Source of the DNA: Escherichia coli
Lineage (GTDB): Bacteria > Pseudomonadota > Gammaproteobacteria > Enterobacterales > Enterobacteriaceae
Length of the DNA stretch: 64,000 nt
Assembly: GCF_016026235.1 (NCBI RefSeq)
Contig: NZ_CP065613.1
Direction: 5' to 3' (one strand)
Under the pieces are notes generated by a model, which worked only from the letters and a program-made list of their open reading frames with translations, was not told where the DNA came from and made no database searches. Positions 61,627-61,740 of this stretch are shown in pieces. The position numbers were made by a program, and so were the translations under genes. Each line of letters opens with the position of its first letter. Position 1 is the stretch's first letter.

Positions 61627-61740
61627 ATGAACAGCATACTGATAATCACATCTCTCCTTATCATATTCAGCATTTTTAGTCATGCCCTAATAAAATTAGG
61701 GATTGGCATATCCAATAACCCAGACAAAACCGATGTATAA
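61627..61740 (+). CDS. candidate 37-aa small hydrophobic protein
   Basis: [43 protein letters not shown]; one predicted TM helix; below ORF-track cutoff. Confidence 0.3.

Follow-up and report, generated by a model that had tools for sequence, protein, structure and literature searches.

The stretch of DNA considered here, hereafter the window, comprises 64,000 nucleotides (nt) of Escherichia coli (contig NZ_CP065613.1 of assembly GCF_016026235.1), and our subject is a 37-codon open reading frame (ORF) close to its end, together with ydfK, the gene that follows it. The ORF is the annotated gene ynfT of the Qin prophage, identical to the reference in both coordinates and sequence: in NC_000913.3 it is b4748, at 1632890-1633003, with all 114 nt of the ORF identical in MG1655 Qin, and when the W3110 record is mapped onto the window its ynfT coding sequence falls at 61627-61740 and its ydfK at 61809-62042. 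Our overall reading, which we hold with good confidence, is that ynfT is a genuine, translated Qin gene; its product would be, as a best guess, a small membrane-protein partner or modulator. The features on which the argument draws are as follows.

61627..61740 (+), ynfT coding sequence, ATG to TAA, 37 codons plus stop, from the ORF listing
61619..61622 (+), Shine-Dalgarno-like GAGG, ending 4 nt 5' of the ynfT ATG
61636..61692 (+), predicted single transmembrane segment, codons 4-22, mean Kyte-Doolittle hydropathy 2.52 over 19 residues
61693..61737 (+), conserved basic residue and polar tail, codons 23-37, the most conserved part of the family
61741..61808 (+), spacer between ynfT and ydfK, 68 nt, with the ydfK ribosome-binding site AAGGA at 61796-61800 and no terminator-like site
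61809..62042 (+), ydfK, annotated as 'cold shock protein YdfK', 77 residues, second gene of the module
61265..63533 (no strand assigned), stretch duplicated in the Rac prophage (ynaM-ynaE-pinR-tfaR'), from blastn against MG1655 Rac

Identity, sequence features and expression of ynfT

The ORF had been put forward in an earlier note on this DNA as an unannotated small gene. The gene itself is real, with the same 37-residue translation in the ORF listing and a match to both a family and an annotation, but it is not unannotated and it is not new: it is ynfT (b4748) in RefSeq, has been for years in the K-12 reference annotation, UniProt, Pfam and NCBIfam, and was shown to be translated in 2018. The peptide matches the Pfam family PF23676 'YnaM' at 96.2 bits (cut-off 27) with residues 1-37 of 37 covered, NCBIfam NF041477 at 63.9 bits (cut-off 35), and PHROG 35882, a family without assigned function, at E = 3e-20; the exact peptide is UniProt YNAM_ECOLI and is found on at least 999 contigs. 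A megablast search with 61400-62100 found the region in 2,808 of 5,426 complete E. coli genomes, the features under the match being 'ynfT: YnaM/YnfT family protein' and 'ydfK: cold shock protein YdfK'.

The remaining claims about the sequence held up. The single transmembrane-like helix that had been noticed corresponds to residues 4-22, the sole strongly hydrophobic stretch of YnfT, and the placement of the ORF at the AT-rich edge of a prophage, upstream of ydfK, agrees with a G+C content of 0.35-0.37 around ynfT, as against about 0.5 in the chromosomal genes upstream, and with the left boundary of Qin, which in the MG1655 annotation lies about 610 bp upstream of ynfT. In the raw sequence the TAA stop occupies 61738-61740. 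The length of the ORF alone is unremarkable, as about 35 six-frame ORFs of at least 37 codons overlap 60000-64000, but its combination of features is unusual: among the 187 ATG-started ORFs of 30-50 residues in the window, the 19-residue mean hydropathy reaches 2.2 or more in two, ynfT and MgtS. The latter ORF (b4599), at 51379-51474 on the plus strand, encodes MLGNMNVFMAVLGIILFSGFLAAYFSHKWDD and is a known small membrane protein, with mgtT, mgrR and dgcZ as neighbors of mgtS in MG1655.

A promoter scan gave matches no commoner than in shuffled sequence, and none that was well placed for ynfT. A published promoter motif from genomic SELEX (systematic evolution of ligands by exponential enrichment), TTCCCA-16-GATAAT, maps to 60620-60647 inside ydfJ and is therefore unhelpful for ynfT. 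An Rfam scan returned sub-threshold matches only, none of them over the ynfT ORF. One such match, to CssrB (chromosome-encoded Shigella small RNA B), lies at 61270-61407 on the minus strand, opposite to ynfT; it falls past the Qin boundary and before the gene, where the prophage end is conserved. With 25.3 bits, where the gathering score is 76, and E = 0.019, this match is probably due to chance.

As for expression, in one RNA-seq data set ynfT was up 5.7-fold and ydfK 5.3-fold, along with cspI, cspG, cspB, deaD and rhlE, a joint induction that fits co-transcription of the two genes and membership of a cold-shock-type regulon. The 5' leaders of ydfK and ynaE were reportedly first described by Raghavan et al. 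in 2011. These leader transcripts end prematurely, bind Hfq and have been proposed to be riboswitch-like (PMC4152368), and the simplest view of the Hfq-binding 'leader' RNA is that it is ynfT mRNA or a 5' portion of the operon's transcript. The identical peptide was detected by VanOrsdel et al. (2018) by means of a chromosomal C-terminal SPA tag and immunoblotting (PMC6001520); Table 1 of that study lists both the ynfT peptide, under the name ynfQ, and its identical Rac copy ynaM, and both genes were positive in the tetracycline ribosome-profiling screen. The naming is a trap, in that ynfQ now denotes another Qin gene in EcoCyc and RefSeq. Weaver et al. found YnaM at levels above those of most new small proteins, the tagged protein, whose peptide is identical to YnfT, being comparatively abundant in ordinary lysogeny broth (LB) cultures, and did not find ribosome density at its start codon (bioRxiv 10.1101/511675). 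In the y-ome review ynfT and ynaM are still among the uncharacterized genes (PMC11551758).

Any reading of such data has to take the Rac copy into account. The stretch 61265-63533, which contains the whole ynfT-ydfK module, is 99.4% identical to MG1655 Rac, with 14 mismatches in 2,269 nt and no gaps, and the three nucleotide differences between ynfT and ynaM, at 61650, 61653 and 61686, are all synonymous. YnaM (b4744, in the Rac prophage of E. coli K-12) is thus like YnfT in having the identical 37-residue peptide and the same Pfam and NCBIfam family, and its gene likewise stands upstream of the ydfK paralog ynaE and of pinR/tfaR; it is a paralogous copy that differs in prophage and chromosomal location only. 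Because the Rac copy is nearly identical, reads from ynfT, ydfK and pinQ are prone to multi-mapping in any short-read data set (Ribo-seq, RNA-seq, variant calls). Multi-mapping of reads is a likely explanation of the missing start-codon ribosome density of YnaM, and the 'ydfK mutations' that have been reported in phage-resistant strains are probably mapping artifacts of the Rac/Qin duplication.

Conservation of YnfT and its linkage to ydfK

A tblastn search against phages matched residues 23-37 only, the low-complexity filter having masked the helix, and a search at the DNA level was used instead. Intact lambdoid phages (mEp460, Tritos, PhiR and others) have the region at 98-100% identity, 2H10 at 93.7% and Salmonella phage 118970_sal3 at 78.7%; the last of these carries a 37-codon version with the Shine-Dalgarno sequence and start conserved. 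An exhaustive HMMER search of 1.84 billion representatives gave 4 matches, all near-identical YnfT variants; since the family forms one narrow cluster at 50% clustering, its more distant members were found by synteny with ydfK. The loci of ydfK homologs, numbered here with the letter L, provided a further version in L017, a GTG-started equivalent in L019, MNFPGWIAIVLMIAFAGAGIVALVKIASQVSNNNDEKEP in L020, and versions ending in ALTRLGIAISNNQDDY in L078 and L079. The conservation test that the earlier note had proposed thus came out in favor of the gene: the frame, with its start and length, is kept in coliphages, in Salmonella prophages and in more distant relatives, and a Shine-Dalgarno sequence is present and conserved in relatives, GAGG being constant across the alignment of Qin, 2H10 and the Salmonella phage, with a purine-rich equivalent (AAGGA, GGAG) in the L017 and L019 versions.

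The alignments point to selection on the protein. Taking the Qin copy as reference, we obtained for the small ORF a ratio of nonsynonymous to synonymous substitution rates (dN/dS, Nei-Gojobori) of 0.04 with 2H10, 0.08 with the Salmonella phage and 0.09 with L017, and the overall span of 0.04-0.11 is in the same range as that of ydfK. The non-coding DNA 5' of the ORF aligns poorly between groups and the ORF aligns well. In an alignment of 10 distinct versions F14, A20, S29, N30, N31 and D33 never vary, conservation at G25, I26 and I28 is 90% or more, and position 23, read from the alignment, is K or R in all 10. A tail motif, [KR]-x(5)-S-N-N-x-D, thus runs through all the versions, conserved or invariant. 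The helix is hydrophobic in every version, with individual residues varying, and the polar tail is the most constrained part. Judging from these comparisons, purifying selection on the YnfT protein is strong, above all in its tail. The ORF does contain a perfect 7-bp hairpin, CCCTAAT-AAA-ATTAGGG, at 61685-61701 on the plus strand (codons 20-25), but it is not kept in the Salmonella, L017 or L019 versions and is probably incidental; the constraint is therefore on the protein and not on RNA structure. The 37-residue YnfT of the window is free of cysteine, and the Cys found at residue 19 of one Salmonella variant stands outside any lipobox context. A Cor-like lipoprotein exclusion factor, which would have a signal peptide with a lipobox cysteine, was accordingly rejected as a candidate.

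In the intact phages mEp460 and 2H10 the genes run exo - xis - int - (attP) - ynfT - ydfK - pin - tfa - stf. The module adjoins tail-fiber assembly genes in Salmonella prophages and, in L020, an Acyl_transf_3 gene, whose family takes in conversion genes that modify the O antigen. In temperate phages it occupies the accessory region between attP/int and the tail-fiber genes, which is where such phages keep genes that are active in the lysogen. The spacer between the two genes is 22-76 nt long in relatives, with 22-32 nt in L017, L019, L078 and L079. Among the IMG/VR loci with enough sequence upstream of ydfK, a YnfT-type ORF precedes the gene in 20 of 20 where YdfK is at least 87% identical (L025 being assigned by eye) and in both of the two where identity is 51-55%; the small ORFs of these two score 21.6 and 25.2 bits on the Pfam YnaM model, just under its cut-off of 27. 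On these comparisons ynfT and ydfK travel together as a unit among temperate phages, lambdoid and P2-like, of E. coli and Salmonella. In one Salmonella prophage (L013/L014) two YnaE/YdfK-family genes are found about 650 bp apart (2143-2355 and 3001-3234), with a 137-residue gene of unannotated function and a YnfT homolog between them.

There is also a clade of YdfK proteins, 55-64% identical to the Qin protein, that is without YnfT; it comprises L005-L012 and the IMG/VR loci L053-L077, from Enterobacter, E. coli and Limnobaculum, and the loci inspected mostly have a divergent ynfU (PF23499, a zinc-knuckle small protein) about 130 bp upstream. Some of these ydfK loci adjoin a very large GH94 glycosyl-hydrolase gene and not tail-fiber genes. 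Taken over all the loci, the pattern suggests that the pairing of ynfT with ydfK is old and frequent, and not obligatory for YdfK.

YdfK and a proposed role for YnfT

The partner gene offers some indication of what the pair might do. An AlphaFold model of YdfK built with 18 homologs is a three-helix bundle with a predicted local distance difference test score (pLDDT) of 80.6, and a Foldseek comparison was in agreement, at a target-normalized template-modeling score (TM-score) of 0.81; on this model YdfK probably has the YmgB/AriR connector fold. By sequence YdfK falls below the threshold of the Pfam YmgB model, relaxed-threshold Pfam searches with YdfK relatives gave nothing meaningful, and a PDB sequence search with YdfK gave no match. 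RefSeq names YcgZ, YmgA and AriR 'putative two-component system connector' proteins, and their genes adjoin bluF/bluR. Cold and blue light induce the ycgZ-ymgA-ariR operon, which acts through Rcs.

Our best guess at the function of YnfT is that the prophage expresses it as a membrane-anchored partner or modulator. YnfT would span the inner membrane once, with the N-terminus outside and the C-terminus inside. This orientation is favored by the lack of positive charge at the N-terminus (Asp2 in Salmonella), together with the conserved Lys/Arg after the helix, and it would bring the invariant SNNxD tail to the cytoplasmic side, where YdfK is expected. The gene is probably co-transcribed with ydfK as a prophage-expressed, cold- or stress-responsive accessory ('moron') operon, and its product may act by binding a larger partner, as other bacterial small membrane proteins do. 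The cytoplasmic tail motif would then be the docking element, and the partner would be either YdfK, with its predicted connector fold, or a host membrane protein. The parts of this explanation differ in strength: about the identity of the gene and its place in an operon we have little doubt, while the specific mechanism, in which YnfT binds its partner through the tail, is a tentative suggestion that we think possible and would not call probable.

One can go further and envision a phage-borne two-part signaling module, in which the SNNxD tail of the YnfT anchor recruits or controls the connector YdfK and the pair rewires an envelope or two-component pathway of the host, for example Rcs, in lysogens at low temperature. 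We consider this distinctly unlikely. If true, two Y-genes would gain functions, and ynfT-ydfK would show a connector system imported by a temperate phage. What is added here is modest, namely the selected SNNxD tail, the phage-wide linkage of ynfT and ydfK and the YmgB/AriR-like predicted fold of YdfK, but together these make a concrete and testable hypothesis for a prophage gene pair that responds with the cold-shock regulon.

Several points weigh against the reading of YnfT as a partner encoded in one operon with YdfK. None of the 22 IMG/VR loci in which YdfK is 58-62% identical has a YnfT-type ORF before ydfK, and the existence of a large YdfK clade without the upstream small ORF implies that YdfK does not need YnfT. 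The co-transcription of ynfT with ydfK is something that we infer, and the promoter scan found no convincing sigma-70 promoter directly 5' of ynfT. The link between YdfK and AriR comes from the predicted structure, with weak support from sequence profiles: hhalign comparisons of YdfK with AriR, YcgZ and YmgA gave probabilities of 2-18%, though all three align the same YdfK segment, LG-x-AV ... G-x-x-[IVL]-[NS]. Lastly, a literature search on ynfT gave only expression data and lists of uncharacterized genes, and no functional study.

Alternative explanations and known systems

The alternative that survives best, itself unlikely, is that YnfT is a prophage-expressed superinfection-exclusion or phage-defense factor that blocks DNA injection or otherwise protects the lysogen. 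Small inner-membrane exclusion proteins such as HK97 gp15 and P22 SieA are the cases for comparison. The setting of ynfT would suit such a role, as an accessory region beside the tail-fiber genes and attP is the usual seat of lysogenic-conversion and exclusion genes, the Acyl_transf_3 neighbor in L020 is of a conversion-gene family, and the gene is expressed from cryptic prophages in uninfected cells. Nevertheless, no PADLOC defense model was matched, the gene is kept in two defective K-12 prophages for which no exclusion phenotype has been reported, and its co-induction with cold-shock genes would be unexpected of a constitutive exclusion factor.

The earlier note had named toxins and regulators as frequent roles of small membrane proteins at prophage ends. 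A role as regulator is plausible. As to a toxin, YnfT could damage the membrane as part of a type I toxin-antitoxin pair or as a lysis or abortive-infection peptide, and this is suggested by the form of the protein, which at 37 residues is below the 60 of the size criterion and consists of a hydrophobic helix with a short polar tail. Toxins of the Hok, Ldr, TisB, ShoB and DinQ types resemble YnfT in size and architecture, and the Qin prophage itself carries hokD. It could be added that short transcripts of the region bind Hfq (PMC4152368). However, tagged YnaM, of identical sequence, is relatively abundant in normally growing LB cultures, which type I toxins are not; the MG1655 annotation has no non-coding RNA in the interval from ydfJ to ydfK, the Rfam scan gave no match at threshold, and antisense promoter-like sites on the minus strand do not exceed the shuffled expectation. 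The locus is also away from the lysis cassette, and the fact that the polar tail and not the helix is most conserved argues for specific binding rather than bulk damage to the membrane. Our literature search found no report of growth arrest or membrane damage on overexpression of YnfT. All told, we think a toxin highly unlikely. A holin or other lysis protein was rejected by its context, the neighbors of ynfT being int/attP, ydfK, pin, tfa and stf and the lysis cassette being separate, in L011 on the other strand.

To the last alternative, that the ORF is a leader peptide or upstream ORF whose translation, and not its product, controls ydfK by cold-dependent coupling or attenuation, we give hardly any weight, for although a cold-induced gene begins 68 nt past the ORF on the same strand, and the premature, Hfq-binding 5'-leader transcripts of ydfK/ynaE have been reported as riboswitch-like, strong purifying selection acts on the amino acids and the tail motif is invariant, the stability of the peptide suffices for detection by immunoblot, a terminator scan of 61741-61808 found no terminator-like site between ynfT and ydfK, the fold of 61600-61830 is no better than shuffled (z = -1.05), the internal hairpin is lost in relatives, a spacer of down to 22-32 nt leaves no room for an attenuator, and many ydfK homologs have no upstream ORF.

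Both a toxin and a leader peptide are thus less likely roles for YnfT than that of a small membrane-protein partner or modulator, and with this role in mind it can be set beside known systems. The type I toxins (Hok/Gef, Ldr, TisB, ShoB, DinQ) are, like YnfT, short hydrophobic peptides and sometimes prophage-encoded; unlike them, YnfT is without an annotated or detected antitoxin RNA (MG1655 annotation, Rfam) and without translational silencing, and is readily detectable in growing cells. YmgB/AriR (PDB 2oxl) and the YcgZ-YmgA-AriR connectors are relevant to YdfK, whose model matches YmgB/AriR, and not to YnfT, and in the chromosomal ycgZ-ymgA-ariR-ymgC operon no YnfT-like gene is annotated, in which it differs from ynfT-ydfK. 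The small inner-membrane regulators MgtS, MgrB, AcrZ and SafA of E. coli are proteins of 30-65 residues with one transmembrane helix that are expressed under particular stresses and act by binding a larger membrane protein. YnfT shares with these the small single-helix design, with no sequence similarity, and it differs from them in being phage-borne, where they belong to the core genome, and in having as its conserved element the polar tail and not the helix.
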